From a virus: DNA of 54,387 nucleotides. The translations under genes were made by a program, and so were the position numbers. Below, in pieces: positions 4,475 to 54,387 of the stretch. The stretch covers positions 1 to 54,387 of IMG/VR virus record IMGVR_UViG_3300010273_000001; one strand, 5' to 3'. The notes beneath the pieces are model-generated. The model had not been told where the DNA came from and did no database searches. It saw only the letters and a program-made list of their open reading frames with translations. The first letter of the stretch is position 1. Each line of letters starts with the position of its first letter.

Positions 4475-4494
4475 TTTATCTCCTTTCTGGAGTA

Positions 4495-4554
4495 TTACTA
4501 ACTCCATGAAGCCTGCGAAGACAAGAAATCTTCGTAGACTTTAGCAATTAGTAA
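4495..4554 (-). promoter_or_regulatory. intercistronic structured element, copy A
   Basis: Outer arms TTACTAA/TTAGTAA and an inner 12-bp hairpin AAGTCTACGAAG/CTTCGCAGGCTT. Conserved loops are TTGCTAAAG and CATGGAG. It fills the gap between the stop at 4565 and the SD at 4479..4486. Confidence 0.65.
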
Positions 4555-4564
4555 TAACAACGAC

Positions 4565-5256: not shown

Positions 5257-5637
5257 TTAACTATATAACATTGATATTACGTCAATAACATTGTCCACAT
5301 CATAATAATCGTTATAATAATCACCCGATAAATAGATAGCATCGTTGGGGTTGCCATTTGGCGGATAGACCATAACAGTCCACCAGCAGCGGCCGTCAGG
5401 GTCAGCTTCGCCGGTTTCTTCATCTTCCAAAATTGCGTTCCGGGCTGTCCCAACACAGACAATGTTTTTGTCGTGGTACCTTGTCCACGAGTTTGCCTCA
5501 TGATCAAAAAATACATCCGCCCAGACCTCGCCAGTATCAATATCTAGCATAATGTCAAGTCTGGATTGTCCGCCATTCCCGATTAACTCAGTATCTAAAT
5601 TATTAAGCCTATCGGTTGCCAAAATCAGCTTTTTCAT
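5257..5637 (-). CDS. hypothetical acidic protein, paralog A of 6505..6885
   Basis: SD GAAAGGAGG. The 126-aa product is near-identical at both ends to 6505..6885 and divergent in the middle. Confidence 0.7.
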   Translation of the reverse strand: MKKLILATDRLNNLDTELIGNGGQSRLDIMLDIDTGEVWADVFFDHEANSWTRYHDKNIVCVGTARNAILEDEETGEADPDGRCWWTVMVYPPNGNPNDAIYLSGDYYNDYYDVDNVIDVISMLYS

Positions 5638-5652
5638 AATTTATCCTCCTTT

Positions 5653-6388: not shown

Positions 6389-6416
6389 TTTTTCACTCCT
6401 TTTTTATTTTTTGTGA

Positions 6417-6471
6417 GTTATTAACTCCATGGAGCCTGCGACCAAAGTCGCAAGCTCTAGCAGTTAACAAC
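6417..6471 (-). promoter_or_regulatory. intercistronic structured element, copy B
   Basis: Outer arms (GTTG)TTAACT/AGTTAA(TAAC) and an inner 11-bp stem GAGCTTGCGAC/GTCGCAGGCTC with one G-U. Conserved CTGCTAG and CCATGGAG. Confidence 0.65.
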
Positions 6472-6504: not shown

Positions 6505-6885
6505 TTATTCCTCCATATATAACATTGATATTACGTCAATAACATTGTCTACATCATAATAATCATTATAATAATCTCCTGATAGATAGATATCATCGGC
6601 TGGGTTGTCGTTTGGCGCATAGATTGTAATGTTCCAATCGCAACCCTCGACTTCTTCCCCGGTTTCTTCATCTTCCATCTTGCTATTTCTGGCAGTGCCT
6701 ATGCAAATAATGTTTTTGTCTTCATACCTTGTCCATGAGTTGTCCTCGTGGTCAAAAAATTCATCCGCCCAGACCTCACCGGTTTCGATATCTAACATGA
6801 TATCCAGCCGGGAATTGCCGCCATTGCCGATAAGCTCAGTGTCTAAGCTGTTAAGCCTATCGGTTGCCAAAATCAGCTTTTTCAT
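6505..6885 (-). CDS. hypothetical acidic protein, paralog B of 5257..5637
   Basis: SD AAAGGAGG; see paralog A. Confidence 0.7.
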   Translation of the reverse strand: MKKLILATDRLNSLDTELIGNGGNSRLDIMLDIETGEVWADEFFDHEDNSWTRYEDKNIICIGTARNSKMEDEETGEEVEGCDWNITIYAPNDNPADDIYLSGDYYNDYYDVDNVIDVISMLYMEE

Positions 6886-6929
6886 AATTTATCCTCCTTT
6901 TGTTTTACAAATTTAAAAAATCATTTACA

Positions 6930-10773: not shown

Positions 10774-10795
10774 TTTTTAATTCTCCTTTCTGGAG

Positions 10796-10853
10796 CATTA
10801 CTAACTCCATGAAGCCTGCGAAAATTCTTCGCAGACTTTAGCAATTAGTAATG
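10796..10853 (-). promoter_or_regulatory. intercistronic structured element, copy E
   Basis: Perfect 9-bp outer arms CATTACTAA/TTAGTAATG and an inner stem AAGTCTGCG/CGCAGGCTT (one G-U). The upstream stop codon TAA (10845..10847) is part of the 5' arm. Confidence 0.7.
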
Positions 10854-11057
10854 ATTGATTAATTCCCTTTTGCCTTCTCTTTCCCATTCCGCTTTTTCTG
10901 CCAGAAATCTGTCGATTTCCGCGTTTTGCCTTTCAGCACCCCTAATCTTCCCTATAATCTCCATGTTCCTTCTCACATTCGTAAATGGGTTGCTGTAAAG
11001 AACACCGTTCACTTCTACAGAAAAATAGCCTTGATTAAAGTATTTTGATTTTCCCAT
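10845..11057 (-). CDS. hypothetical protein (70 aa), first gene after the AT-rich hub
   Basis: SD AAGGGAGAA upstream of the ATG. Confidence 0.6.
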   Translation of the reverse strand: MGKSKYFNQGYFSVEVNGVLYSNPFTNVRRNMEIIGKIRGAERQNAEIDRFLAEKAEWEREGKRELINHY

Positions 11058-11197
11058 CAGTTATTCTCCCTTCTTTTAGCGCTTCGCTATTTTTTTTCAC
11101 CTTGATTATACTATATAGAGTTCGTTTTCGCTTGTTTTTTTTCTTTTTTTATATTCGTATGCATCGTTGCACGGCCTGTTTACCGTAATAATACCTT

Positions 11198-11214
11198 GGC
11201 GTTTTTAAGACTTT
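11198..11214. repeat. 17-nt direct repeat GGCGTTTTTAAGACTTT, copy 1
   Basis: Perfect match to 11459..11475. Confidence 0.9.
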
Positions 11215-11308
11215 AATGGCCAAAAAATTAAGATGAAAAAAGAATTTAAAAATTCAAAAAGATTTAAAATAATTTCTCAAAATTTACTTTTTTGTCTTAT
11301 AACTTCCG

Positions 11309-11324
11309 AAATGTTGTAATATTT
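11309..11324. repeat. 16-nt inverted repeat, left arm (AAATGTTGTAATATTT)
   Basis: Perfect reverse complement of 11442..11457; the arms are 117 nt apart. Confidence 0.9.
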
Positions 11325-11441
11325 AGTGTAATAACCATAGAATGAATTTTTTTTTGAAGATAAAATATATATGGTGAGGTGTGTGTGTTAGGAAAAATAA
11401 AATGTGATAAAAAAAATATTCTATATATAGGAAATTACATC

Positions 11442-11457
11442 AAATATTACAACATTT
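11442..11457. repeat. 16-nt inverted repeat, right arm
   Basis: Reverse complement of 11309..11324; abuts direct-repeat copy 2. Confidence 0.9.
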
Positions 11458-11458
11458 G

Positions 11459-11475
11459 GGCGTTTTTAAGACTTT
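11459..11475. repeat. 17-nt direct repeat GGCGTTTTTAAGACTTT, copy 2
   Basis: Perfect match to 11198..11214. Confidence 0.9.
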
Positions 11476-11524
11476 TTTTAAGATTTTTCAAAATTTTTTA
11501 AAACTTTTTAAAACTTTTTAAAAT
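11471..11524. repeat. 10-bp phased A/T tracts (AAAACTTTTT-like units, about 5 copies)
   Basis: The sequence reads acttttttta|agatttttca|aaatttttta|aaacttttta|aaacttttta in exact 10-bp register. Confidence 0.85.
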
Positions 11525-11584
11525 AATGGCTTTTGCGTGCTTTGTGGCTACTTTTAAGACGCTTTTGTATCAACATGTATACGT

Positions 11585-11610
11585 AAAAAAAAGACCCGAG
11601 ATGGGTCTTT
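11585..11610 (-). terminator. intrinsic terminator after 11613..11954
   Basis: The minus sense reads AAAGACCC-AUCUC-GGGUCUUU followed by a U7 run, 3 nt after the stop codon. Confidence 0.75.
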
Positions 11611-11612
11611 GG

Positions 11613-11954
11613 TCAGATCTGGGCAAAACCACGACATCCAATGATCCGTCCATCTTTGTCCCGAACGCTGTCGTTTACGACCAAGAGGTCAGATCGCTTC
11701 CCAGCCGCCGCCTGCGCCACCAGAGCGCTTACGACATAGAAAACCCCGGGCAGTGGGTCAGGAAGTCCAGTAATTTCACCGTAGAAGTTCTTTGAGATGG
11801 GAAAACCATCAATTTCCCCGATTACTTCAGAACGGACAGCGACCCGAGCAATACCGCTAGACTTTATCTTTTCGGCGAGCTCATCCCCGCGGTATAGATG
11901 GATTTCATGAGGTGTCAAGTTAACAATCACTTTTTCAACAATCACTTTTTCCAT
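11613..11954 (-). CDS. hypothetical protein (113 aa)
   Basis: SD GAAAGGAGA precedes the internal ATG at 11954 (MEKVIVEKVIVNLTPHEI...). Visibly higher G+C than the rest of the arm. Confidence 0.6.
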   Translation of the reverse strand: MEKVIVEKVIVNLTPHEIHLYRGDELAEKIKSSGIARVAVRSEVIGEIDGFPISKNFYGEITGLPDPLPGVFYVVSALVAQAAAGKRSDLLVVNDSVRDKDGRIIGCRGFAQI

Positions 11955-11966
11955 TCTCCTTTCCGA

Positions 11967-12029
11967 AGTCTGCTGACTCCAAAAAACCCACAACCGCATG
12001 CGGTTGTGGGCTCTAGCAATCAGCAGACT
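11967..12029 (-). promoter_or_regulatory. intercistronic structured element, copy F (inner hairpin is terminator-like)
   Basis: 10-bp outer arms AGTCTGCTGA/TCAGCAGACT. The inner hairpin CCCACAACCGC/GCGGTTGTGGG is followed by T6. The upstream stop TAG overlaps the 5' arm. Confidence 0.65.
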
Positions 12030-12450
12030 AGTCTAGGTAGAGGTCGCACAGTTTGCTGACTTCTGCAAGGATTGTTTCCTTAGTGATGGTCGGATTCATG
12101 AGTTTTTTGATTTCCGCGTTGATAAACCGGATCGCCGCCAGATCTGTTTCGTCCAGATCCGCTTTGTCAAAAAGTCGTTTCTTTTCCTTTTCTAGCTCTT
12201 CCAGCGCGTCTTTGTCCACCTGCTTGAAGTAGTCAACCAGCCGCAGGAAGTCGGCTTTCAGCCGTTCTTCTTTTGAGCGCATGGTGCGGCTGCTTTCGGT
12301 GCGTTCCACCACCTCCCATCCCGCTGCTGCCAGATCTCTTAAACAAGCGGCGGTGTTTTTGCCAGTGCCGCTGTAGCCAGTCAACACCCTAATGGCTTCA
12401 TTAGGGGAATTAAAGGTTCTGACTTGTTCGCCATTCTTAAGTTTGATCAT
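12028..12450 (-). CDS. hypothetical protein (140 aa), first leftward gene
   Basis: SD GAAAGGAGG lies 7 nt before the ATG. Confidence 0.65.
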   Translation of the reverse strand: MIKLKNGEQVRTFNSPNEAIRVLTGYSGTGKNTAACLRDLAAAGWEVVERTESSRTMRSKEERLKADFLRLVDYFKQVDKDALEELEKEKKRLFDKADLDETDLAAIRFINAEIKKLMNPTITKETILAEVSKLCDLYLD

Positions 12451-12471
12451 GTTGTGCCTCCTTTCACTAGT

Positions 12472-12477
12472 ATTATA
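12472..12477 (-). promoter_or_regulatory. candidate -10 box (TATAAT) for the leftward arm
   Basis: The minus strand reads TAGTAGTATAATACTAGTGAAAGGAGG. No convincing -35, and the leader would be very short. Confidence 0.3.
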
Positions 12478-12550
12478 CTACTATTAAACCGTTTCCTTCC
12501 GTTTTTTTGTGTATTTTATGCGCAGCACGGCTCCGCTAGTTCGCGTGGTC

Positions 12551-12586
12551 CCGGTTCCGGTTCCGGTTCCGGTTCCGGTTCCGGTT
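12551..12586. repeat. hexanucleotide microsatellite (CCGGTT)x6
   Basis: Six perfect tandem copies read directly; degenerate flanks at 12547..12590. Confidence 0.95.
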
Positions 12587-12588
12587 CT

Positions 12589-12632
12589 GGGCGTTCCTGC
12601 GCGCGCCGGGCGTTCCTGCGCGTTCCTGCGCG
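12589..12632. repeat. three copies of CGTTCCTGCGCG (two within GGGCGTTCCTGCGCG)
   Basis: Copies at 12592..12603, 12611..12622 and 12621..12632. Confidence 0.9.
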
Positions 12633-12750
12633 CACCGGGGGGGGGTCGCCACGGAAGTCGCCCGCTGCCGCGCGCCCGGGGGGGGTATAGTCCACCTCCA
12701 TCGTTAACAGAAAAGAAAGGGGGGTAAAGCGAACAAAAATTTGCAATAAT

Positions 12751-12779
12751 TTGCAATTTCAAAAAGAATAAGGTATAAT
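12751..12779 (+). promoter_or_regulatory. sigma-70/sigma-A type promoter for the structural arm
   Basis: TTGCAA (12751..12756), 17 nt, TATAAT (12774..12779), 25 nt before the terS ATG. AATTTGCAAT is duplicated at 12739..12758. Confidence 0.55.
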
Positions 12780-12804
12780 AGGATTAAGAGGCAGGTGAGA
12801 AAAA

Positions 12805-13188
12805 ATGGCAAATTTAGAAGCATATGAGAAGGTAGTTCAGAATTTAAAGATAGTGAAGGCAATGAAGAGTGCGGGGCAAACGGATCGGGAGATAGCGGAG
12901 CGTATAGGGATAACGGTAAAGGAATTGCTAGAGGTTATAGGGTCGGACAATTATTTAAAGGAGATATATGAGAGGGCGCAAGAGAAGGTAGTAGCGGGGA
13001 TAGAGAGCAAGTTTATAGAAGTAATGGAAGAGAAATTAGAGGAAGGGGATACGAGGGATGCGAAGTGGTATTTAGAGAGGGTATCGCCGAAGTATCAGAA
13101 GAAGGACAATGTGATGGTAAGTGTAAAGAGCATTGATGAGGTAATAAGGAATCGAGGGGGTTTAAGTGCCGAAGGAGAAGATGTTTGA
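12805..13188 (+). CDS. terS: terminase small subunit (candidate; HTH protein)
   Basis: Helix-turn-helix-like TDREIAERIGITVKELLEV. Lies immediately upstream of and overlapping terL. SD GAGGCAGGTGAG. Confidence 0.55.
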   Translation: MANLEAYEKVVQNLKIVKAMKSAGQTDREIAERIGITVKELLEVIGSDNYLKEIYERAQEKVVAGIESKFIEVMEEKLEEGDTRDAKWYLERVSPKYQKKDNVMVSVKSIDEVIRNRGGLSAEGEDV

Positions 13189-14965
13189 AGGGATTGATTA
13201 TGAGAGGACGATATTCAATCCGCGATGGTTCATGGAGAATTTACTTTACATAGTAGACAAGGCGGGGCGGACGATACCGTTCAAGTTCAACCGGGAACAA
13301 AGGCGTCTGATGGAGCATATAGAATTTTGTTTAGCGAACGACATACCGATAAGGATAATTTTATTAAAGGCGCGGCAAATAGGGGCGACGACATTTTTCA
13401 CGGGATTAGGTTTTTGGTGGGCGGCGATGAATCGGAACACCAATTATGGGATAGTAGCGCATCGATTGGATTCGGCGCAGAGCATATTCGACAAGACGAA
13501 GATGTTTTATAATTTTTTACCGAGGGAATTACGGCCGTCGACGATTCAATTTTCGAGCGAGGCGATCAAGTTTGACAAGAAAGACGGGACGGGAATAAAC
13601 TCGATGATACAATTCGCGACGGCGGGAGAGGGGGTATTTCGGGGGCAGACCTTGAGATATTTACACAAATCGGAGAGTGCGTTTTGGGACGGGGATATTG
13701 ATTTAATCAACAGCTCATTAGCGCCTACTGTTCCTGATGTGCCGGGGACGATAATAGTGAACGAATCGACGGCGAACGGGTATAATCATTTCAAGGAAGA
13801 ATGGGACAGGGCGGTGCGAGGGGAGAGTGGATATACGCCGTTTTTCTTTGGATGGCAAGATCATGAGGAATATCGATTGGAGGTTCCGTATGGTTTTGAA
13901 CTGACGGAAGAAGAGACGAGGCTGAAGGAGAGGTTCAATCTAACGGACGAGCAGATTGCTTGGCGGCGGAAGAAAATATCGGATGATTACCATGGGAACG
14001 AGTTATATTTTCAGCAGGAATATCCGATGACTCCGGAAGAGGCGTTTCTCGCTAGTGGGGCGGGGGTATTTGACGCTAAGACAATCAAGGCGGGATATGA
14101 GTCGAGCAAAGAGCCGAAGTTAAAGAAAGAGATCAAGAGTTATATAACGCCGGAGAAACTGTTGATATGGGAAGAGCCGCAAGAGATGGTAGAAGAAATA
14201 CGGTCGAAGAAGGCGGTATGGTCGGTCGAGAAACAAGCGTATGAGTATGAGGAAACGGATTTGGTGCTTGAGACAATCAAGAAGAAAGTGCCGTATACAA
14301 TCGGGATAGATACAGCGGGATTAGGCAAGGATTGGAATCAGATTGTGGTGATTAACAATTTGACGAAGAAATATGCGGCGCGATTTGGGCAGAAGGACAT
14401 ACCGGAGGATGCGCTTGCGGATATAGCGATAGAGATAGCGGAATATTACAATAATGCAATGATAGCGCCGGAGACTAACTTTTCGAAGGAGATATGCAAT
14501 TATATTTTAAAGCCGAAGTTTGACGAAAACGGGGAGAAGATAAGAGACGGGTATAAAAACGTATATATGACGGAGAACTTGGCGAAAACGAAAAAAATCA
14601 GCGTCGGGGGGGGCGTGGAATACGGTTGGAAAACAACGGGGAGCACGAAAGCCCCGATGATTTCGGCATTAAGGGCGCTTTTGAAGGAACATCCGGAACT
14701 TATTGAAGATAGGGAATTTTGGTATCAAGCGGAATATTTTTTGATAACGGACATTGCGAAGAACAAGATGGAGGCGGCGGGCGGACATTTTGACGATATA
14801 ATAATAGCGGCGGCGATAGCGCATTATGTATCGTGCAGTTTTCAAGCGCCGCAAACGCCGATAATATTCAAGGAGGAGAAAGCGCAAAAAAGCGGTTGGA
14901 TAAACGGGATATACATACCAAAGAAAAAAAAGTTGAGAAAGGGGATTTATAAGAATCATGCGTAA
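13166..14965 (+). CDS. terL: terminase large subunit
   Basis: Walker-A-like LKARQIGATT, followed by VNESTANGYNHF and the nuclease-region GIDTAGLGKDW. GTG start with SD GAGGGGG. Confidence 0.9.
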   Translation: MPKEKMFEGIDYERTIFNPRWFMENLLYIVDKAGRTIPFKFNREQRRLMEHIEFCLANDIPIRIILLKARQIGATTFFTGLGFWWAAMNRNTNYGIVAHRLDSAQSIFDKTKMFYNFLPRELRPSTIQFSSEAIKFDKKDGTGINSMIQFATAGEGVFRGQTLRYLHKSESAFWDGDIDLINSSLAPTVPDVPGTIIVNESTANGYNHFKEEWDRAVRGESGYTPFFFGWQDHEEYRLEVPYGFELTEEETRLKERFNLTDEQIAWRRKKISDDYHGNELYFQQEYPMTPEEAFLASGAGVFDAKTIKAGYESSKEPKLKKEIKSYITPEKLLIWEEPQEMVEEIRSKKAVWSVEKQAYEYEETDLVLETIKKKVPYTIGIDTAGLGKDWNQIVVINNLTKKYAARFGQKDIPEDALADIAIEIAEYYNNAMIAPETNFSKEICNYILKPKFDENGEKIRDGYKNVYMTENLAKTKKISVGGGVEYGWKTTGSTKAPMISALRALLKEHPELIEDREFWYQAEYFLITDIAKNKMEAAGGHFDDIIIAAAIAHYVSCSFQAPQTPIIFKEEKAQKSGWINGIYIPKKKKLRKGIYKNHA

Positions 14966-20450: not shown

Positions 20451-23400
20451 ATGAAAGAAAGACGCGTGTTTTCTTTTTCTAATTTCCGTGGACTAGATCG
20501 AGAACATAAACCGCTTATGGTTCACCCTTCGAGAGCAACGAATGGAATAAATTTTCAGATAGATGGTGGCACCCTTAAAACTCGCCCCGCTGTTAAATTT
20601 AAGCGTGCGCCAATCTTTAGCCTTGATGAAGATGATTTCATCATTGATTGGTATGATTTCCGCGGCATTTATGTTTATGTAACAAAAAAACATATTTATA
20701 TTGAAAATGCGGAAAAACAAGAGTATTTCAATGAAACAATGGAAAACTCAAAGTTAATTCATCCGAAATTTCCTACATTTAATTTTTCTGGATTTACTCC
20801 GGTTTTTCAAGAAGAAAAAGAAGTGTTATTTATTTTCGGATTGGATGGAAACATATTTATATTTTCGGTATTATCTGACGGCAAATATGTTCTTTATGAA
20901 CTTCGTAATAAACCTTCCAATCCATATTCTGCTGAACAGGAACCTTTTTATACCGAGTATGAGAATCTGCCTATTCCCTACGAACCGACAATTTTTATAG
21001 GGGAAAATCGTTTCGAAGATGTCAATCTGCTTTCAAAAGTTACGAAATATCGGTTGTTTGCTTCGACAAAAGATTTCGACGATGGCGGAAGGATTTTATA
21101 TAGGTTACCTACGCATTATGATCCGGAAAAACACGGTGAATATGACGAAGAGGTAACGATATACAAGAATAAATTTTCGGATTTTACGGTTGTTCCGGTA
21201 TTTTTAGGGCGGCAAGGAGAGGATTTTGAAGAGGATTTTGAGGAATTTGATCCGCCTGCTACCCTTTATAACAATACTCCTTTTGAGATTCAGAATGTTT
21301 TTACTCCGGCAAATGATTTTGAATATCGCAAGGATGGGACGGATATAACGCCGATTTCTGAAATTCTGGGGTTGGATAAAAACACATTCTTTAATTTTAA
21401 AGAAAAAAATCTTAATATGAATGTGTTTGAACTTCTGATAAATATTATCCGAAGCGAGGGACAGAAATTTGATAGTAATAAGATAGTTGTTTTCAAATTG
21501 CCGGTAAGATATAAAGCTGTTTACCGGGATGCAAATAATAATTATATCATCGAATCTTCGATGAAACAAAGCGATTTTTTGATTTATGTTTTATTGCAAA
21601 AATATTCCGGTTTTTTAGAAGACCCGGATGTATATACCAGCTCGATGAAAGTAACGGATCTTTCAAAGGAAGATTATCCGGAGTATCCGGCAGTTTTAGG
21701 AACTTATGATGATATAGTAGTTTTGCCCGGTTCGCCTTTCAAAGTGTCGTTTTTCTCGCAGCTTGATTTTCAATCAAGTGCTATGCAATATCTTTGGCAG
21801 AATAAAGAAGATTTTACTCCGGGGCAACGGATTCGGGTAAATGCTAGATTTTATGAAGAATATGAGATCCCTCATCCGAATAAGATTGAGATAGATTGGA
21901 TGTCTATCAACGATCATTTAGGCGATTACGTTTCGGAAGAAGTAGTAGTTGAGCCGTTCGATACAGACACTTACCCGGATTATCCGCCTGATCCAGACGT
22001 TTATACTACGGTTATTGAGTTGTCTTCGCCTATTGAGACAAGTGATATTGATTTCCATGGGGATGGGCATAAGGGTACCACGCGAGATATTGAAGAAGCA
22101 ATTGAATGGTATTTCTTGTCTAACAAAGATGAATTCCAGGATTCCGGAGAGGCTTTATTTAAAATCAGAGTTTTTGAGCGCAATCTGGACGATCAAGGCG
22201 GAACTTTCCCTCGTGGAGTGAGTGCCGTAATACCGGTCTCTTATGAAAAGGCTTGGGTAGAAAAATATCAAAACCGGTATTCCGCTTCTTGTTTGATTTC
22301 TTTTCAAGTAGAAGCAATCGAACCGGGAATGTATGAATTTCGTTTTAATGAGGTAGATCATGTTTTCGAACTCCGGATAAAAGATTATTATTTCGATTAT
22401 AACAATGAGCCGAGTATTGAGGTAAAGGTCACTTTCGATAAAAATCCGGAATATGAACTTGTTTCTAAATGCCGATTTGGAATAACGTTTGGGAGTGAAA
22501 ATCGTTTGTTTTTAGCCGGCCATCCAGAATATCCAAATATTGACCGGTATAATGTATCAAATGATTTGCTTTCGGATAGGGTTGGTAATCAAAGTTATGA
22601 ATTATCATATTTCCCCTCGAGGAATCGCAGGGTTGTTGGTGGCCCGGGGGCAATAAACGGCTATGTTGTTGCTACCGATACGCATTTATATATAACTAAA
22701 GAAGATTACCCGAATGATCAGAAGTTATTTGTCCGGGAGAGAATTCTCGATGAAAATGGCGTTGTCGGTTATAAAGAATATAAGACAAGTGTTGGCAAAA
22801 CGCCCTTAAATCATCGTTGCATTGTCCGGTTTTTTAACGATATTCTTATGCTCGCCAAAGACGGATTATACGGAATAGAGATTTCTGGTAATATCCTTGT
22901 AAACGAGCGGCTTATTAAACCGCGAAGTTTGCTGATAGATAAAGATTTATCCGAAAAAATCAAGAAGTATGACAAACACAAAATTTATATAGCAGAGAAT
23001 AATCAGCAGTTGTATATTTTTATTGGCAAGACTGTATTTGTTGCAGATGTTAAATATGTTTTTGTAGATGAACACGATCCGTATGAATTCAAGACTTATG
23101 AAATGGTAGAATGGGAGTTGCCGTTTGAGACGCGTTATGCAAAGTTTTTATCCGATGATTTCTTTATGCTTGACGATAACGGGAAAATTTTCTATCATTT
23201 CGAGGAAGATAGCAATGATGATTTGGCGTTGAAACTCTTTCAGTCTGTTTCCTTGTTTGGCGATTTTGCTTTCCTTGCTACGCAAGAAACAGATGAATTT
23301 ATTGAAAAAAATAAAATTATCCGGTTTATATTTTCGGAGATTTACGGAAGTTTTGCTAAAGAAGGCACCGATTTTGTAATCGAGGACGGAGTCGTTTATA

Positions 23401-24182
23401 TCAATAATCCGATTGCTTTCGCCGATCTTAACGACGGAGATACAATATATTTTCAGTCTAAAAACGGCGAACCCGTTCCGTTTGTTGTAGCTGGTTTTGA
23501 AGCAAGCGATCGTTGGAGTTTTTCCCTTATAGGCAAAGCGGATGCGGCGGAATACAAAACCGATTATATATACAAGGATTTTTCTAATAAACCTTTGTAT
23601 TTATCGGCTGCTTGCGATTATAAAATAGACGAAGATTATTTCCGGGTTTGCATTCTTGAGCCTCATTATATAAGCGAATTTATAACAGTTAAAAAAGAAA
23701 AAGGCGAAACAGATGAAAAATATGCGGAACGCCTGTCGCCGATTACTGATGAGGCAACACATTATTTCTTCGGTAATTCTGGAATGCAAGATTTTATGAT
23801 TATTGCGGAAAAGCCTATTCAATTTGTTTGGGTAAGTTGCATTACTGATTTCAATAATAACTTGTGGGAAAAAACAATGTTCATGGCAAATATTTATGCC
23901 ACTAAACAGACAAAAGAAAATAACTTGTATTTGGGTTGTAGAACTATGAGAAGACTTAAAGCGCTAGACGAAGTCATCCCTTTACCGAATAATTTTGATT
24001 TTGGAGAACTTGACTTTAATATGTTTACTTTCAGCACTTTTTCGGAATTCGGCATGTCTATTCGGATGAAAGAAAATAATTTCCTGTATATTCAGTTTAT
24101 GGTAAAAGGAGAGGGAAGAATTCATCTTAATGCTCTTGAGATTATCTATAAACTGAATCGCCGGCTTAAGACAATAGGATAG
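20451..24182 (+). CDS. large structural-module protein (1243 aa), function unassigned
   Basis: Uninterrupted 3.7-kb ORF with SD AGGTGA. No motif recognised. Confidence 0.85.
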   Translation: MKERRVFSFSNFRGLDREHKPLMVHPSRATNGINFQIDGGTLKTRPAVKFKRAPIFSLDEDDFIIDWYDFRGIYVYVTKKHIYIENAEKQEYFNETMENSKLIHPKFPTFNFSGFTPVFQEEKEVLFIFGLDGNIFIFSVLSDGKYVLYELRNKPSNPYSAEQEPFYTEYENLPIPYEPTIFIGENRFEDVNLLSKVTKYRLFASTKDFDDGGRILYRLPTHYDPEKHGEYDEEVTIYKNKFSDFTVVPVFLGRQGEDFEEDFEEFDPPATLYNNTPFEIQNVFTPANDFEYRKDGTDITPISEILGLDKNTFFNFKEKNLNMNVFELLINIIRSEGQKFDSNKIVVFKLPVRYKAVYRDANNNYIIESSMKQSDFLIYVLLQKYSGFLEDPDVYTSSMKVTDLSKEDYPEYPAVLGTYDDIVVLPGSPFKVSFFSQLDFQSSAMQYLWQNKEDFTPGQRIRVNARFYEEYEIPHPNKIEIDWMSINDHLGDYVSEEVVVEPFDTDTYPDYPPDPDVYTTVIELSSPIETSDIDFHGDGHKGTTRDIEEAIEWYFLSNKDEFQDSGEALFKIRVFERNLDDQGGTFPRGVSAVIPVSYEKAWVEKYQNRYSASCLISFQVEAIEPGMYEFRFNEVDHVFELRIKDYYFDYNNEPSIEVKVTFDKNPEYELVSKCRFGITFGSENRLFLAGHPEYPNIDRYNVSNDLLSDRVGNQSYELSYFPSRNRRVVGGPGAINGYVVATDTHLYITKEDYPNDQKLFVRERILDENGVVGYKEYKTSVGKTPLNHRCIVRFFNDILMLAKDGLYGIEISGNILVNERLIKPRSLLIDKDLSEKIKKYDKHKIYIAENNQQLYIFIGKTVFVADVKYVFVDEHDPYEFKTYEMVEWELPFETRYAKFLSDDFFMLDDNGKIFYHFEEDSNDDLALKLFQSVSLFGDFAFLATQETDEFIEKNKIIRFIFSEIYGSFAKEGTDFVIEDGVVYINNPIAFADLNDGDTIYFQSKNGEPVPFVVAGFEASDRWSFSLIGKADAAEYKTDYIYKDFSNKPLYLSAACDYKIDEDYFRVCILEPHYISEFITVKKEKGETDEKYAERLSPITDEATHYFFGNSGMQDFMIIAEKPIQFVWVSCITDFNNNLWEKTMFMANIYATKQTKENNLYLGCRTMRRLKALDEVIPLPNNFDFGELDFNMFTFSTFSEFGMSIRMKENNFLYIQFMVKGEGRIHLNALEIIYKLNRRLKTIG

Positions 24183-31258: not shown

Positions 31259-34200
31259 ATGAATATTAAGTATGTCGGCTTAAAACCAGAAGAAGCACTT
31301 CTTAAAATTCAGAGCGATGCCGTTCAAGCAATAAGGGAAAAAGTCGAGGCTTATAGGAACAATGTCGACAAACTTCTTGCCGCCTACGAACCGCCTGAGG
31401 TTGATAGTTTTTGGGGAGCGATGGCTATTGCGCCTGCTACTCTTTATAGTCTAATTAAAAGTGGTTTGGATAGTTTAGTCGATTTCGGAGCTTCTTTTGC
31501 TTATGTCATCGAAAATGCGATTAACGATGCAATGCATATCTTCGATTCATCGGACGGAACGGATTGGCGGACGGATACCAAATATTTTTTTGGTAATTTA
31601 GGGCTTTCACTCCATGAAGCAATTAGCACTTCGCTTGTTTCTACAGGGGCTAATCTTGGACGGGTTATCGGCATTGATCCTAAATGGGCTTACGGGGAAC
31701 AGGGATTAATTCCGAAGATGGCTCGGCAGTATAACCTTTCTCGTTCCCAATTGCTTGCTTCTCCGGATAAAATCAGCATATTTAAGCCATATCAACCTGT
31801 TGAAGATTTAATGTCGAGCCAATGGGAAGAGTATAGGAAATATCTTGATTTTGCTGAGGGGAGAACTCCGGAACAAATTATCGAAGATCGCTATTACGAA
31901 GACATAAGAAATGCTATTGTTCAAACCGGCGAATTTCAGAATTGGGTCTCGCGTAATTTCGTGGAACCGATTGCAAATACTCTTACTTTGGGCACTAAAA
32001 AGTATGCCGATAGATATTACAAAGATAGCGAATTTTATAACTTCCTTATGGGGGCTGCTGAAAGTGCGGGGCGCATTCTTGCTTCTTGGGCGGTTGCTAA
32101 GATCGGTGCAAAAGCCGGAGTTAATCCTCAAACGTTGAGTTCGGCTTACTTTGCCGCGTCCATTTTTGCGGACAGTTTTGAGGAAGCTTTGAAAAACGGT
32201 GCTACTATGCAAGATGCCTATACTTACGCGGTAGGAACAGCTTTTCTTGAAACGGCGATCGAGAATTTTGGCGGTCGGACAACGAGCGGCGTAAAAAAAG
32301 CGGCAAAAAGAAGTCTGTTCGAAAAAGTCCTAGGAGAGAAATGGGGAAATATTGTCCAGCAGGCTGTCGAAGAAGGTCTTGAGGAAATTGGCTCGGAGGT
32401 TGCCGGAACAGGTCTTTCTTATTACGGGAGCGGTGAAAGACAAGTTGATTCCGCCGAAAGCTTCCGGGAATTCGCAAACAGAATAATGTTTTCGTTTTTA
32501 AGCGGCTCTATTACTTCGATGGGTCTTGGAATTGGGCATGATATGTATATTGACACAACCGCTATCGGTAAATCCCGACGCGTTCTTACCGATATAAGTA
32601 AACAAGTGACTTCTGAAAATTCCAATAAAGTTTATAGCCGTTTTCAAAAAGACCTTGAAAACTTTGTTGCGTATATAAATCGTCCGGATGCTAAAGGTCT
32701 GAAAACAACCACAAAAATCGTGGCGCCTTCCGGGGATGTTATCGGGCCAGCCGATGTAGGAGACGTCAAAAAAAAGGAAGTCTCGCAGTATGTAGGCGTC
32801 TTAACTCCGGAAGAAAAGAGCCGGTATATCCGTCAGATTGGGTTAGCAAATGTTATTGAAGAAGTTGACGGTAAATTCCAAATAAGAGAAAAAGCGCGGG
32901 AAATGGGCGATAAAATTTTTGCCGTTCGGGTTGGAGATAATGTCGTAAACAGAGCCGATTATGCAATCAATGACGCCGTTTGGGGTGTTGATATTAGCGA
33001 TGATGGCACAACCGAGGTTGTCAAAATGGCTAATCTTAATGAACGGGGCAAAAAGATACTTGATATCGCTCAAAAACGCAACATACCAATCGCTATTATT
33101 GACGAAGCGCCGAGAGGGAAGAACGATCTGGGGATTTCCGGATTTTATTCGGCAGATAACGGAATTATTTATATAAATCAAAATCCGAATGTTGATATGA
33201 CAGATGAAGAAATCGAATCGGTAATTATAAAGCACGAATTAGTCCATCATATCGCTAGCAAAAATCCGGAATTGTTTGAAAAATTAAAGAAAATGGTTAA
33301 TAAATTCGTTGATTTTGAAGTCGATGGGGAAGGCAAAAAGATTGATGTTACCTATAAGAATAAAAAAGTAGGTGAAATTCTCGAGAAAAAAGGTTTTTCG
33401 GATCATGTTTTGAAATCGTTCCTGGATTATTTTGAGGGATTAAAGGATATGAATTTTGCCGTAAAACAAGCGCAAGAAGAAGTTGTTGCTTATTTTGTCG
33501 AGGATATGCTCGAAGGCGGCGATTTTTTAGAGATTATCTCCAAAAAAGATGAGAAGCTGTTCGAAGAATTAAAAAACGAGACTACTGATGCTATTGATAT
33601 GGCTGTAGGCGAAGATAAAAAACTTGCCCGGAAGCTGAAGAAAATCCGAAAGAAGTTTGAGACTATTGCCGAAAAGACTTTGGCTCAAAAGAGGACGCTT
33701 CAGTCCTATATTGATCATTTCCTTGGCTCGGGATATGTTCTCGAAGATATGTTCAATAAAGAATTGCTTGAGAAATACGACGCTGAATATCTTTGGGATA
33801 TGTTATGGGAGACGTACGAAAAAGATCCTCAAGCAAGAGAAATCAAGATTGACGGCAAAGTTTATCCGCTTTCGCAAGTCTTGGCGCGGACTGCTAATGT
33901 CAAGCCAAAACGGCTTGCCCGTCCGGATTGGGATAGAATATATTCCGAGTTTAAGTATGACGCGCAAGAAAAGACTTTATATCTGAAACTTCTGCGAAAA
34001 TTTATTAATGAGAACAAATATGTGCAGGATGAAGAAATTCGGGAAATAGTTGGAGATGCTGAATGGGCGGTTGATAAAATTAGAGACGGGGGCGAATTGC
34101 GCGAATCCGAATATGAGATTCTCCGGCAATTAGTTACAGATTATAAATTTAGCGAAGCGGAAAAGAAATGGAGAGAAGAAAACGAAAAGGTTCTTGAAAC

Positions 34201-37200
34201 TACTAAATTCCGCGTACTGAAGAATTTAATCGCCCGAGTTGTCCGTTTCATGAACGATCCACAGAAATCTGGAATTACCGGTTGGCGTAATAGAAGTCAC
34301 ATTATGAGATATAATGCGGCTTATTTAGCGCTGGATAAATCGGCAAGGAAAGAAGGCGAAAGCGTCGAAGCTTTCGCAAAAAGAATTCAGATGATTACTT
34401 CGTTGAGTTTAGAGCCGTATTTCCCCGAGCAATTCAATGTCACTTATTATATCCCGGATAAAGCCGATTATATCGAATTCTTGATTAAACCGACGAGAGA
34501 ATTCTTGGAAGAAGAAACAAGAAAAGCGGAAGAAGCTGAAATCAAAAAACAAGAGACCACGGAAGTTGAGGGGCTAATGCCGGCAAAACCGCCTGTCAAA
34601 ACAACGAAGGAAGATTCTATAAATGCTCTTGAAGAAATCGGGGTTACTCTTGAAGGGAAAAAAGTTATCACTCTTGATGACAATATAACCTTGGAAAAAC
34701 TAGAAGAGATAAAATATGACGACAATAATATCGTTGTCGGGAATCCTCCGTTTGCCGAGAATAAGAACGCTGAATATTTAAAGAAAGCTCTTGAAATCGC
34801 GCCGGTTGTTGCGATTGTTTTGCCGCGTCCGTGGGCTAAATCCTATATGTTACAGAAAGAGATCCCGGGAGATAAGAAACTAATTTATAACGAGCTTATT
34901 CCGCTGAAATCTCTTAAAACTAGCTCGGGCAATCGGCAGATGAAAACGGTCGTTCAAATTTGGGTTGATTCCAAAAACAAAGAATTTGAAGATTTCGAAA
35001 ATATCCGGGCATTCTTTCAACCAAAAATGGCGCATCCTGATTTTTCCACATTTACTTTGACCGGCGAAAGACGCAAGTATGAGGATGCGAAATATTTCAA
35101 TTTTGATTTGGCAGTTGTTAGGGAAAGCAATACGGCTAAATTCAGTGAGATAATTACGAAGTATGAGGATTTGAAACCTAAAGGCCATTATCTTTTGATT
35201 AAAGCTAACAATCCGGAAGCGTTACAGATTTTTTCTATGATTGACTTCGAAGCGCTTGCCGACAAAGGCTCGACAATACAGAGGGGATTTACTACCTATG
35301 ATTTGATTGAAGAATATGAACGTATCAAGAAGGAGGTAAAATCCATTAAGACGCCTATGAAACGGCTTGCCGACGACACGAAACTCACGGACAAGGAACG
35401 GAAGTATTTAGGTGAGATTGCCGAGTATTTTACGAAAGATAAGTCTGGAAAATTCGTTATTAAATCCGAATATATCGTGAGGCAAAAACCGGCAAAACAA
35501 GCGGTTAAGATCAACGGCGTTGTTTATTCCTCGGACGAATATGCGGTTCATACCACCGTAGATTTGTCGAGCGTAAACGCGGAACTTAAATTGAAGCGGA
35601 GCGAATTTGAAAGACCTCTAAAACTTTCGGAACTTTCCGAAAAAGAACAGGTTTGGTTTGATTTTTTCCGAGCTTCGAATATGAACTTCGTTTTATATCG
35701 AGCCCCCCAAAATGCTTCTATTTTAGGATTTGAATATCCTTCGGAAGAATCTTATGTCGTTTATATCAATACGGAATATCTGTATCATAATTTTGATAAT
35801 TTTCATAAATTTCTTACCGGGACTTTCGTTCATGAACACGTGCATGAATTAAATAAAAGAAACAAGGCGAGAGCATTTAAGTTTGCCGCTGAACTTGCTA
35901 ATATTTTATTCGAAGTCAAAGACGGCGAAATTGTCCAGAGCGATATATTTAAAAAGATTGAAGAAACACGCTATAAAGACTTTGGTTCTTTTCTCCGTTA
36001 TATGAAAAACTCTTATTGGTATTTAAATAGCGGAAATAGTTTCTCATCTTATAAAGATCTTTATAATGCTTTAATTAAAGGAGATAATGGTGACCGTTTG
36101 CATTATCGGGTTGTAGATGAAGTTGTCGCTCAGATATGCGGCGTTCTATTCTCGGATTATGAGGTTTACAAGACTGTATTCCAAGGCAAAGCGGAAAACA
36201 TCTTACCTTTCCATCAACTCTATACGAAAATTCTTGATGATCCGAATATTCCGATAATGGTAAAAGAACAGATACGCAAAGCCGTTTTTGCTCTTGAAGA
36301 TGCTTATAAGGAATTTCTGGCTGATCTTAAAAAGAAATTTCCGCCTGAGGCCATCTATAAACTGCGCGATCTCAATAAATTTATTCGGTCGTTTACGAAT
36401 AACCGTTTCCGTTCAAGAAATGATCTTATCCAGCGATATTTGGAAGAAAGAGCGAATCATAAGCACGGTTTGGCGCATATGGCGGTCGATAACATAATTT
36501 ATATCGCTTCGTTGTTTGCGGAGCAGACGCAAAAGGGCTATGAATTCTATCAAAATATGAAAGAAGAATTCGAAGGTTTCCGAAAAAATATCGAGTTTCT
36601 TCTCAATAGCGAAGATGATTTGACGGTTCTTCAAAAAGGCGAGATTCGCCAACTGGTGAATCTTTTGATTAAGCAAAATATCTCCGAAGAAGGATTCATA
36701 TTGAGTGAGGGCGGGCTGGATCTCGTTGATAGAATTTTGGAATTTGCGGAAGAATACGAAATGATTCCGGAAGAATTGCTAAAAATTTTTGGCTTGCCTA
36801 CCCATAAGGAAATTATAAGCGTTGCCGCAGAACTCCAGAGAAATCAAGCCGAGGGAAATGCAACAGCTTTTCAAGTCAATTTCAGGGAATTCAAATCGCT
36901 TTTGAAGAAGATAAAACAGGTTTTGACGAGCGAGACCGATGATATTTTTAGGAAGATAGCCGATTTAAAAATCGCTTATCGCGAAAAAGAAATGGATTTG
37001 TTTATAACAAAACTTAAAAATCATTATGCCGCTTCCAAAAAGAAAATAACTTCCGTGAAACTTCAGTCCGAATCTCCGTTCAAAGAAACTCTTGCGGAAG
37101 TTATGACCTTAATTGCCGGCGGTAGGATTAACGGGGTAGATATTCCCGGAATCATTCAAGTGGTTCAAAATAACAAATATAATCTCAAGCAATTAAGAGC

Positions 37201-40200
37201 GGAAATCGTTCCTTTGCTTGAGAAAATTCGGGAACTTGCTCGAAAAAGCCCAGATATCCCGGAAGATGTTTTTGAAGAATACATCGAGCCGAGATTCAAA
37301 ACCATATACCGTCATCTTGCTTTGCTTTTGAAAGACCCCTCCGTTCTTTATGAAGTTTACCCGCCGGTCAAAAAAGAAGGAGGCCCTCAAAGCATCGACG
37401 AAGTTTTCGGAACAGTTATCACACTTGAACGGCTCGGGGGAAAATTTAATGCGAATGCTTTTGCAAGGGCTTTGATGGAAATATTGGAAAGATTCCAGAC
37501 TAGGTATACCACGTCTTTGAGCGGCGATACGCTAACTCATGATGAATATGCGGCGAAAACCAGCAAACAGGTTATTCAATTTAAAGACAAACTTGCAAAT
37601 GTCAATGCTAGGGCGGTCTCTTGGCTTATGCCTTATCAATTCTTCTTTGGAATGTATAAGGATTTAGTGGGTAATGAGATTGAATTCTTTTCCGATTTCT
37701 ACCGTGAATACATCGCGTCGGTTATGCGGCGCAGTGATATTCTTGCGGAATATAAAGAATCGTATAAAGAATGGGTAAAATCTCATAAAAAACATCAGAA
37801 GTTCACGCTCGAAAAAACGGAAGTCGCGAAGAATATGTTGCTTCAGATCCGGAAGGACGTGCTTCTTAATCTTGCCGGAGAAGCGCGGAGAGAGTATGAA
37901 GAAGATCGGCAGAAATACGAAGAAGCAAAAGAGGCTTATAATGAAATAAAAGATCAACTCGCGGCTAAAAACGCGCAAATCAAAAATACAAAAGAGGCTT
38001 TGAAAGGGCATGAAGAAAAATCGTTTACTTGGACAGCTCTTAAAAAACTTCTCGAACAATACGAAGAAGAGAAAAAGGCGTTGGTAGAAGAGAAAAATGA
38101 AAGAAAAATTATAAGGGATAATCTAAAAATCCTGCTTGAAAATGAAACGATTGAAAAGAGAACGAAATCCAAGATTTTTGAATGGGCTGCGGAAAACAAA
38201 GCAAAGAACTCGGAAGTCAGCTGGGGGCAGATAATAACAACTTATCTTGCGGTAGAGCGCGAGATTGAGATGGAAACAGCGGAATACGAAGATGTCCCGG
38301 GGATCAATCCAACGAAACACTTCGAATTCGGAAATGTCCTGCATTTCTTTGATAATGAATTGCTTTGGAAAAAAGGTTATGCCGTCGCGAAAGACAACGC
38401 CATTCCGTTCGTTATTTTTGCGGATAACAAAGAGAAATTGCGCGATTATCTTTGGGGGTTGATAAAGGATAACGAAATCGCACAAGAAATAATTAATTTT
38501 GCTAAAGAGCGGTTCGATAAAAACTATGAATATATTGACGAAATCTTTTTTGCGAAATATGGCGTTCATTTACCTCGGCAAGAAACATATGTTCCATTTG
38601 CGTCTCTCGAGAGCGATTATGCTCGGGATGTTGAATTAAAGATTATCAACCGAAGAAACATGGCTACCCCAGACGGCTTTGTTATGGAAACAACGCTGGG
38701 AGCAAGGACGGATTTAAGAATTGAAAACATCTTTGCGGTAATCGAAAACCATACGAGATCGATAGCCAATTATTGCGGTTTTAATCGGTTGCTTTACGAT
38801 TGGCAGAATCTCTATGTTAACAAGGCCGGCGGAGCGCCTTTGCAAGAAGCCTTTACCGGAAAGGACAATAAATTCGGGCAAAATAACGATATTGCGCATA
38901 TGATTGAACAGGCTTTTGCCGACAATCTCGGTTATGGGGATGTCATGGCAACCCCGGTTGAAAAATGGGCAAATAAAGTTTTGCTTAACAGTATGGCGGC
39001 GACAATGTCGGTAAATATCCCGTCAATGGTAAAGCAGTTCGCCTCGGTTTTGACGGTAATGATTAAACATAAATTGTCTCCGAGTGCTTTCATTAAGAAT
39101 GTTGTGTTGAGTTTGGGTCGATCTAAATATCGGAATTGGCTCCTGAAAAACAATAGCAATTTTTATCATAGAGCCGACGCCGGCAATGTTCCGCATTTAG
39201 CGGACGCGGCAAATCTCGGTATTTACTATATTGCGCAAGATGTGACAAGAAAAATCGCAAATACCTTAACGAAACATATTGGTTGGGCAGATAACACTGT
39301 TCTTGTCGCGGCTTTCAAAACGATAGCGGACGAGGTCAGAAAGCAAAATCCAGGGATGCCGGAAGAAGAAGTTTTGAAAAAAGCGAACGAGCAATTTATG
39401 GAGGTCTTGTTGTTTGGAGTGGCGAATACCGATCCGGGATTCCGGGCGCATTTCTCTAACTCAAACAAATTCCCAACAAGATTTGCAAGCCGTTTCCAAA
39501 GCGAGAACATCATCCATGCGGCAGCACTTTACCGGGATTATGTCTATGTCAGAAACGGCTATTCGGGCGGGTGGAAAAGATTTGCCCGAGACTTTATCGC
39601 CTTCTTGTTATCGGCTTTGTTCACGGCTTATGTATCGAATACTTTCAACCGAATGAGAGGTTATTACGAGGATAAAGAAGAAGCTGATTTTGACTTTTGG
39701 GTGAATGAGCTTCTACTTAATAATATTATTGGAGGCCTTCCGGTTGTAAATCAATTTACTTCCCTTATTCAATTTGAAAAACCAAAAGACGGAGGAGGCA
39801 AGTTAATTAGCGCCGGATTTTCGCCTAGGTTGCCGGGAATAACCGAGGTATACGAAATAATAAAGGCGGTAGATTCAATGCAAACAGGCAAGAATATACC
39901 CCGTAAAATCTTGAGAATTTTTGAGAATATCGGGAGCATGGTCGGATTCCCGGTTAAGAATATCAATCGGCTTATCTCGACGACCTCCCGGTTGCTTGGG
40001 GCGCAAGGGATCGAGCAAGCGGAAAGCATTGCAAGATTCTACAGCTCGCAAACAAAAGCGCAAGCATTCACGGCGGCTATCAAAGAAAACAATCGGACAA
40101 AAATCAACATGTATGTAGAAGAAGTTTATGGCGATCTCGAGGTTCGTAATGAAATAGTTAACTTGCTCGCGGCAAACCCGGATTTAAGATTGAATCTGTA

Positions 40201-54006: not shown

Positions 54007-54384
54007 TCAGACGTAGTCGATTTCGGCAAGAGTTTGTTCAATTTCATCCTGTAATGCTGTAGGTTTTGGGCAATCGCATCCGCTTGGCTTGCGGCCTTTC
54101 CAAAGACATTTATATTTTTCAATTTCATCATAAGCTTTCGTCAACAATTCCCTCATCCTCGCCACTCGCACCCTTGATTGCTCTATTTGCTTTTCCCTTG
54201 CGATTACCTCATCCATAAGGCATTTAACTTCGTACTTCCAATCTTCAAGTTTTGCCCGGAGCTGCTCATTCTCCTGCTGCAAGGCTTCGATAGCTTCAGC
54301 AGCCTCATCTATTAGCCTGTCTATATGCGTCCATCCAGACATGCGATTGTTTTTTCGCAATTTCTCTAGCAATTCTTCATACAT
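54007..54384 (-). CDS. coiled-coil protein spanning the circular junction
   Basis: The ORF runs into the terminal repeat. The likely true start is the ATG at window 129..127 (MNGMYEELL...) behind SD GGAGGGAAG. C-terminal Cys cluster CLWKGRKPSGCDC. Confidence 0.65.
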   Translation of the reverse strand: MYEELLEKLRKNNRMSGWTHIDRLIDEAAEAIEALQQENEQLRAKLEDWKYEVKCLMDEVIAREKQIEQSRVRVARMRELLTKAYDEIEKYKCLWKGRKPSGCDCPKPTALQDEIEQTLAEIDYV

Positions 54385-54387
54385 GCC
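54265..54387. repeat. Terminal direct repeat copy 2 (identical to 1..123)
   Basis: Direct comparison of both window ends. Confidence 0.95.

Follow-up and report, generated by a model that had tools for sequence, protein, structure and literature searches.

What does a block of very GC-rich, repeat-dense DNA do at the head of the packaging genes of a phage? The block in question, here called the island (12519-12724), lies in IMG/VR virus record IMGVR_UViG_3300010273_000001, all 54,387 nucleotides of which were analysed (the window), and it separates a leftward open reading frame (ORF), ORF140, from terS, the candidate gene for the small terminase subunit. An earlier note on this DNA had offered three possible roles for the island: a terminase recognition site, a slipped-strand contingency locus and a G-rich structure. 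Comparison with relatives of the phage indicates that the island contains a conserved G-tract element that is probably a packaging or late-gene control site, and terminase recognition is the role that we tentatively put first.

The island is genuine, non-coding and composite

The window is a circular assembly in which bases 1-123 recur at 54265-54387, giving a genome of 54,264 bp. As this 123-bp end overlap falls within coding DNA, it was taken to be an assembly overlap and its reading as a true terminal repeat was rejected. The 206-bp island has a GC content of 70.9% against a genome mean of 39.1% (z=6.0) and is the strongest GC outlier of the genome; the next-highest 206-bp segment outside 11400-12900 reaches 55%. 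Three of the 16 G/C runs of at least 6 nt found genome-wide fall inside 88 bp of the island, which is placed between the start of ORF140 on the minus strand (12450) and that of terS on the plus strand (12805). Left of the island GC is still raised, to 45-60% across two minus-strand ORFs (11600-12450). The earlier account of a GC-rich island of about 200 bp at the divergence point is therefore accurate, except that the surrounding genome, described there as AT-rich, is only moderately so at 39% GC. The repeats and G runs on which that account rested were all recovered at the same positions; its GTCGCC direct repeat is indeed present twice (12645-12650 and 12657-12662), but is not kept in relatives.

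Six-frame translation of the island yields low-complexity peptides throughout, and relatives depart from the window in this region by an indel of 83 nt and, within the G runs, by single-nucleotide changes. Because these differences break any reading frame, the island is non-coding: a hidden coding gene was rejected, and the ORFs that can be drawn across the island are artefacts of its repeats, as had been supposed. An assembly chimera, which the note had named among the findings that would undo its proposals, is also refuted, since the same island sequence was recovered from at least 10 independent metagenome assemblies of different samples (IMG/VR, JGI, ENA and Logan). The island is made up of two parts that have evolved in opposite ways, a conserved core (12637-12724) and variable arrays (12547-12636), the latter comprising a CCGGTT hexamer array and an array of CGTTCCTGCGCG.

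A fixed-spacing module upstream of terS throughout the family

In the window and its closest relatives (the window clade, defined by nucleotide identities of at least 78% for ORF140 and of 96-98% for terS), the core is made up as follows.

12637-12645, plus strand: G run 1 (G9), the upstream half of a bipartite module; G7-G10 in 11 of 12 lineages
12646-12677, no strand: GC-rich inter-run spacer of 32 nt, constrained in length and not in sequence
12678-12685, plus strand: G run 2 (G8); G6-G9 in the clade, a C run in most other lineages
12686-12708, plus strand: C-rich box TATAGTCCACCTCCATCGTTAAC, with its core CCACCTCCATCG at 12692-12703; variants in 12 of 12 lineages
12719-12724, plus strand: G run 3 (G6; G7 in L104), restricted to the window clade except for a counterpart in L008

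From centre to centre the three G runs are 40-41.5 bp apart, and the spacer and run 2 together measure 40-41 bp in all window-clade sequences compared. The C-rich box has a single good match in the whole window genome. Across the clade the core is 89-93% identical, compared with 76-85% for the leftward genes and 96-98% for the promoter and terS.

The large terminase subunit, TerL, has many uncultivated relatives on 50-54-kb contigs, and the regions upstream of terS were compared between the window clade, L008 (TerL 73% identical), L010 (63%), L012 and L114 (both 50%), L107 (43%) and, at 56-60%, L011, L091, L092, L093/L094, L095/L108 and L109. G/C runs of at least 7 nt occur just upstream of terS in all 12 lineages (TerL 43-100% identical), where they are almost the sole such runs in each AT-rich locus. 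None was found in 38 IMG/VR control loci with TerL 33-36% identical, and 77 control loci from genome collections (TerL at most 37% identical, 465 kb) yielded 7 such runs in total. More distant phages do not carry the module.

Within the module, the distance from the end of run 1 to the C-box (CCACCyCCAyCG) is 43-52 bp, mostly 46-48, in the 11 lineages that have run 1; in the remaining one, L011, there is no G7-G10 run and a C7aC6 block adjoins the box. Examples of the box are CCACCTCCATCG in the window, CCACCTCTATCG in L010, CCACCCTCACCG in L109 and CCCCACCACCG in L107; the regular expression for it is too permissive to give a chance rate, and conservation of the box is judged from manual comparison and its fixed spacing. 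The second homopolymer block, which adjoins the box, is C8, C6aC7 or C5gC8 in L010, L091, L092, L093, L095 and L109, is made of G in the window clade and L107, and is absent from L008, L012 and L114. L091 and L092 share the runs and the box, but between the runs their sequences have diverged without a change in length. By contrast, between 24 and 71 bp separate the box from the -10 hexamer of the downstream promoter in the 12 lineages. This combination of fixed internal spacing with a floating promoter distance agrees more with an independent binding module than with a site in phase with the promoter. It is a property of the duplex that is conserved (G:C blocks and a box at fixed spacing), which points to recognition by a protein. 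The sequences themselves show how the module is built and conserved, its fixed spacing, its occurrence as a single copy, its linkage to terS and the repeat polymorphism described below.

A scan of IMG/VR for the pattern TAA-G7-N20-32-C7 returned two unrelated contigs only. One (L188, 2470-2700) carries repeated intergenic GGGGGGGTTAACC...GGTTAACCCCCCC palindromes and the other (L189, 1920-1990) a dense cluster of G9-G11 runs; homopolymer-based elements may occur in other phage groups.

The core as a candidate terminase-recognition region

The genes and the promoter that flank the core are the following.

12028-12450, minus strand: ORF140, the divergent neighbour, conserved here in most family members
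12751-12779, plus strand: sigma-70-type promoter TTGCAA-17-TATAAT of the terS/terL packaging and late operon (promoter scan, 10 of 12 matches)
12805-13188, plus strand: terS candidate, small terminase subunit, with weak PHROG terS matches (E=4e-5); overlaps the start of terL
13166-14965, plus strand: terL, large terminase subunit (phrog_2, E=3e-25; nearest solved structure the T4 gp17 ATPase, E=5e-14)

The promoter is invariant in five window-clade sequences and has equivalent -10 hexamers across the family, several of them of the extended TGn type. The core is a single-copy bipartite cis-element, which in every family lineage belongs to the terS side of the divergent region. Being single-copy, directional, bipartite, fixed in its spacing, tied to terS and not phased with the promoter, the module resembles a terminase recognition region. 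Our preferred reading, which we hold with somewhat less than even confidence, is that the core would be a pac- or cos-type terminase-recognition region beside the packaging promoter, with slippage repeats alongside, and possibly an autoregulatory operator as well. Terminase (TerS, then TerL) would recognise the concatemer at the core and thereby start packaging, and what is recognised would be the duplex, with its phased rigid G:C blocks, rather than a fold of one strand. From the layout of the locus we infer terminase binding, cleavage and any regulatory effect. The recognition site suggested by the earlier note thus has a leading candidate in the G runs and the C-box, but this does not extend to the hexamer and CGTTCCTGCGCG arrays, which are absent in L003 and L105.

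As to the type of site, we lean towards pac over cos because nothing indicates fixed ends. As expected for pac, the site is single-copy in the window genome and, in all 12 lineages, lies close upstream of the terS promoter -10. The circular assembly is compatible with pac but does not discriminate between packaging modes. As to a two-fold symmetry of the kind seen at cosN, the lineages are divided: six carry inverted G7-8...C8 blocks, the arrangement is G...G in L107 and the window clade, and another three possess one run each. Contig ends, a weak proxy for DNA ends, do not mark a fixed-position genome end at the island. Three relatives break there at different positions, L103 (52.5 kb) at about 12532, just left of the arrays, L001 at about 12557, where it starts in the hexamer array, and L102 (51.5 kb) at about 12604, where it ends in the CGTTCCTGCGCG array. 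Since the break positions differ and lie in or beside the arrays, they are better explained by repeat heterogeneity or GC-linked loss of coverage than by a physical end.

Breaks were also seen nearby. The 39.6-kb contigs L002, L100 and L101 end in an AT-rich stretch near window position 11417, and L091 (NCBI contig JBMSXN010000002.1 of a metagenome-assembled genome (MAG), 15.8 kb; 1-364) ends about 240 nt upstream of its G8 run. Many ORF140 homologues are found on contigs of 1.0-1.3 kb, a length that corresponds to the stretch from the island to the AT-rich region. Assemblies break recurrently at the island and in its AT-rich neighbour 1 kb to the left, which explains the fragmentary recovery of many relatives.

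The closest documented layout is the pac region of phage SPP1 (pacL-pacC-pacR), with which the module shares its position at the head of a late operon and its modular arrangement. SPP1 uses short boxes and an A-tract bend, whereas the window module is built of G:C homopolymers, and the TerLs of the two phages are not close relatives. The SPP1 pac overlaps the promoters PL1 and PL2, the ribosome-binding site and the 5′ end of the terS gene, and the terminase represses its own synthesis (PMC6316719). As in SPP1, a site beside the packaging promoter, and in some lineages overlapping it, could feed back on terS transcription. In PaP3, the genome of which consists of two oppositely transcribed regions, the cos site is GC-rich and TerS binds a cos-containing fragment (PMC3488191). 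The element in the window is likewise GC-rich, single-copy and immediately upstream of terS, in a genome similarly divided into two opposed blocks; unlike lambda-like and PaP3 cos sites, however, the window clade lacks the partial two-fold symmetry of a G run and a C run, and its contig ends do not coincide.

Several points weigh against a terminase site. Apart from the non-coincident contig ends, the TerL type is uninformative on the packaging mode, the nearest relative of known structure being T4 gp17 and matches to cultured phages staying below 30% identity, and the identification of terS is itself weak. The second homopolymer block is not constant either: its strand differs between lineages (six have C; L107 and the window clade have G), and three lineages do without it. 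The literature searched describes neither a terminase site built on G:C homopolymers nor G-tract elements upstream of terS; its matches to "poly-G" concerned poly-gamma-glutamate and its match to GGGGGGG was a primer list. Finally, constant proximity to a promoter, about 25-70 bp upstream of it, would suit a transcriptional operator just as well.

The core as a possible late-promoter operator

That last point is the main rival, and it does not exclude terminase recognition. Here the module would be an operator or activator site of the late-operon promoter, bound by a phage or host transcription factor and without a role in packaging, which we regard as possible though doubtful. The module is always upstream of a sigma-70-type promoter that heads a rightward operon of about 28 kb, the box reaches the -35 position in L091 and L092, and a near-consensus promoter of late genes would need some control. 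Against it, the 24-71 bp between box and -10 show no consistent helical phasing, and the box is not repeated at other intergenic regions of the late arm.

The divergent small gene ORF140, which usually adjoins the module, gives the locus the classic layout of a regulator and its target. ORF140 homologues occupy the same position in L003, L008, L010, L011, L092, L093 and L095. In L012 and L107, however, the module stands beside terS although the adjacent leftward gene is not an ORF140 homologue, so it is retained even without ORF140 next to it. Nothing identifies ORF140 as DNA-binding, by fold or by family: its predicted model is confident (pLDDT, the predicted local distance difference test, 85), and no match was obtained in Pfam, among PDB sequences or with Foldseek. 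On these grounds ORF140 was rejected as the protein that binds the module.

Further from either reading is the proposal that no part of the island has a function, and that it was left behind by recombination or is the margin of a horizontally acquired GC-rich cassette (ORF140 and ORF128) with runaway repeats; we consider this unlikely. In its favour, GC is raised from 11600 to 12725, a promoter region and two terminator-like hairpins flank the pair of leftward ORFs, conservation changes stepwise at the island, and the arrays behave neutrally. Yet ORF140 is a conserved family gene at this position and not a recent import. Compared with morons, the leftward ORFs give mixed signs: GC is raised and terminators are present, ORF140 is kept at its position in most of the family, and ORF128 is seemingly clade-specific. 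A recent moron origin of the island was rejected because the gene order is family-wide. The module, moreover, keeps its fixed spacing in AT-rich genomes whose TerL is as little as 43% identical. Long homopolymers would be expected to decay without selection, and their retention argues for purifying selection on the core.

The second of the two leftward ORFs, ORF128 (11613-11999; 113-128 amino acids (aa)), matches only PHROGs of unknown function (phrog_30542 and phrog_21731) and is seemingly restricted to the clade. The terminator-like hairpins that follow the two ORFs are at 12003-11988 and 11610-11590.

Turnover of the adjoining repeat arrays

The part of the island left of the core, together with its flank, contains four repeat or block features.

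12489-12508, no strand: CCGTT-type short repeat, then T7, next to the ORF140 promoter on its upstream side; haplotype-variable
12524-12545, no strand: left-flank block AGCACGGCTCCGCTAGTTCGCG, kept in the window clade and partly in L008
12547-12587, no strand: (CCGGTT/GGTTCC)n hexamer microsatellite, from Tandem Repeats Finder; copy number variable
12587-12632, no strand: CGTTCCTGCGCG array of three copies, lineage-specific; effective period 10-19; repeat family D10

Tandem Repeats Finder reports the hexamer microsatellite (12547-12587) with period 6, 6.8 copies and 97% matches, and it includes (CCGGTT)x6 at 12551-12586. The copies of CGTTCCTGCGCG are at 12592-12603, 12611-12622 and 12621-12632; since copies 2 and 3 overlap by 2 nt, the program assigns 12587-12632 a period of 10. 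Both arrays are found in part of the window clade only, in the following states.

Window: 6 hexamers
L002, L006 and L096-L101: 5 hexamers
L102, with the left-flank haplotype of the window: 5 hexamers
L104 and L106: degenerate hexamer arrays of differing composition, and an altered CGTTCCTGCGCG array
L003 and L105: neither hexamer nor CGTTCCTGCGCG array, the region being otherwise kept

Because they are absent, degenerate or variable in copy number among members of a single clade, the arrays look young, unstable and dispensable. They may be recent simple-sequence expansions produced by replication slippage on CCGG-containing quasi-palindromic units beside the G tracts; units that are quasi-palindromic, as the CCGG cores make them here, favour slippage. 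On this account they would gain, lose and degrade units fast, would have no conserved role and would chiefly alter the distance between the divergent promoters. The flank behaves similarly. At 12489-12508 the window has CCGTTTCCTTCCG followed by T7 and L003 has CCCGTTCCGTTCCG followed by T8, while the 5-hexamer haplotype (L002, 1070-1095, and L096-L101; corresponding to window 12484-12508) has the perfect palindrome ACCGGTCCCGGACCGGT followed by T7, terminator-like on the terS-sense strand, whose window counterpart, CCGTTTCCTTCCG with T7, is not palindromic. The two haplotypes appear to be a further sign of fast turnover of CCGG and CCGTT motifs beside the ORF140 promoter.

A role of the arrays as a contingency locus, in which the number of hexamers or the length of the G tracts would switch or tune the expression of terS, ORF140 or both, is very unlikely in our estimate. 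The length variation that the earlier note had anticipated is real: the same flank haplotype carries 6 hexamers in the window and 5 in L102, and otherwise near-identical genomes differ by G8 or G9, although such single-base differences could be assembly error. The breaks of contigs within the arrays are compatible with heterogeneity inside samples, and one hexamer step would turn the divergent promoters relative to each other by about 0.57 of a helical turn. Mutable homopolymers and short tandem repeats in a promoter-bearing intergenic region, polymorphic in length, are also what bacterial contingency loci look like; in Mollicutes these have homopolymers or short repeats in or upstream of promoters. 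The bins of the relatives are labelled Tenericutes or Bacilli, groups in which repeats are known to control promoters. Where the prediction falls short is position, because no tract lies in an ORF or in a -35/-10 spacer (the terS spacer, 12757-12773, and the -10 region of ORF140 were considered): upstream of terS, 115 bp separate the end of the arrays from the -35, and upstream of ORF140 about 74 bp separate their start from the -10. They are, furthermore, wholly absent from L003 and L105, and the diverged clade members shorten run 2 by substitution with the total of 40-41 bp kept, which is not slippage. Unlike purely stochastic tracts, the G runs are conserved over deep divergence, and switching packaging genes off brings no obvious benefit.

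Arrays of repeated hexamers beside packaging functions also recall the pac site of phage P1. The P1 hexamers are essential, Dam-methylated and conserved, whereas the hexamer array of the window is missing in close relatives, and the idea of a methylated hexamer on the P1 model was rejected since the three methyltransferases of the phage are of N6/N4 and D12 adenine types and not C5 enzymes. A restriction-site or decoy function was likewise rejected, as CCGG and GCGC are not depleted genome-wide.

Core and arrays can also be read jointly, an improbable combination. The module would then represent an undescribed class of terminase site read through duplex shape, and the hexamer array a helical-phase rheostat, whose 6-bp steps of about 0.57 turn would couple the terminase-bound module to the ORF140 promoter. 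Phage populations would then vary, heritably but reversibly, in how they balance early-left against packaging expression.

DNA and RNA structure in the island

A structural role, in which non-B DNA (a quadruplex or i-motif, a hairpin or cruciform, or Z-DNA in (CG)n) would form an insulator or a replication or recombination element, is in our judgement highly improbable. As in G-quadruplex promoter elements, several same-strand G runs stand upstream of the promoter in the window clade, and the window has a single quadruplex motif, the long-loop G9-N32-G8; no short-loop motif of four tracts with high propensity was found by the prediction that the note had recommended. The G4Hunter maximum in the island, 1.36, is below that of several coding sites, and lineages whose second block is a C run, as in most relatives, do not have four G tracts on the same strand. 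With its weak score, 32-nt central loop and a C run as second block in L010, L091, L092, L093, L095 and L109, an intramolecular G-quadruplex was rejected.

Pairing fares no better. Inverted G7-8...C8 blocks occur in six lineages, with loops variable in sequence and constant in length, and in the window clade G8-TATAGT-CCACCTCC can pair and does so in the minimum-free-energy fold. Folding of either strand, with z-scores of -1.6 and -1.9, is nonetheless no better than that of shuffled sequences, and loops of 22-29 nt disfavour the extrusion of cruciforms. Because the inverted G/C repeat is missing in the window clade, L008, L012, L107 and L114, a hairpin between a G run and a C run was rejected, and neither structure is family-wide. 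A structured RNA or intrinsic terminator was rejected on the folding result and two further negatives: Rfam gave no hit at the gathering threshold in the whole window and only chance-level matches in 11000-13000 at E up to 10, and the terminator scan was empty in the island, which has no T tract. The island does mark a boundary, with the right arm 96-98% and the left arm 76-85% conserved, as an insulator or recombination element might, but the G-rich structure proposed earlier found no backing in the G4Hunter score, the folding or the arrangement of the runs, which is not conserved across the family.

Neighbouring genes and genome context

The phage also codes for helicases, a VapE-type primase-helicase, a Sak-like annealing protein and the three methyltransferases already mentioned. 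Its genome has no nucleotide match among GenBank phages. ARAGORN found no tRNA, no integrase was present among the large ORFs scanned, and no prophage copy was detected among representative genomes of 185,579 species; an attachment-site (attP) core derived from a tRNA was rejected on these three results. A further genome scan returned only phage contigs binned into MAGs, the labels of which are unreliable; it is these bins that are called Tenericutes or Bacilli.

About 1 kb left of the island, the region 11100-11600 is non-coding, has 18-25% GC and contains several promoter-like sites as well as GGCGTTTTTAAGACTTT-type repeats, three of the five genome-wide copies of TTTAAGAC and (TTTTTTAAAA)x5 at 11474-11524; it is a candidate early-promoter or origin region. 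Farther along the left arm, an intergenic element of about 70 nt (TCTCCTTTCTGGAG..ACTCCATGAAGCCTGCGAA and ..CTTCG.AGACTTTAGCAATTAGTAAT) is found at 4479-4555, 6402-6442 and 10782-10852. It recurs two to three times at 93-98% identity and is also present in L003 at about 320-420, and could be either a terminator/promoter cassette present in several copies or a sequence that bounds exchanged modules. Two adjacent segments, of about 120 and 250 nt, each have a second copy 1.25 kb away with 81-85% identity (5262-5652 and 6516-6900), which appears to indicate paralogous small genes.

Four G/C runs of at least 7 nt occur in the genome. One is a G8 run in terL (14606-14613), which codes for Gly-Gly-Gly and is a potential frameshift-prone site, and the fourth is a G7 run (53289-53295) inside a minus-strand gene. 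A 367-aa minus-strand ORF (52858-53961), weakly RIIB-like by PHROG, contains a tandem repeat with a period of 24 nt, or 8 codons (53381-53676). Two very large ORFs, one of 3069 aa at the end of the rightward structural arm (31259-40468) and one of 1243 aa (20451-24182), have no Pfam or PHROG match.

Implications for the phage family

We would class the island as a control region of phage packaging or of the late operon to which a microsatellite is attached; its module of fixed spacing with a strand-flippable block is a clean regularity. If the module is merely a promoter operator, or the arrays are neutral, what we describe is an ordinary phage control region with a decorative microsatellite. 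If it is a packaging signal, it would provide a sequence-defined handle on an uncultivated family of phages of about 54 kb from digester and gut metagenomes, allowing genome ends to be predicted, assemblies to be oriented correctly and satellites or transducing elements that copy the signal to be searched for. A terminase site made of strand-interchangeable G:C homopolymer blocks would, moreover, mean that it is the shape of the DNA, and not its base sequence, that is recognised.

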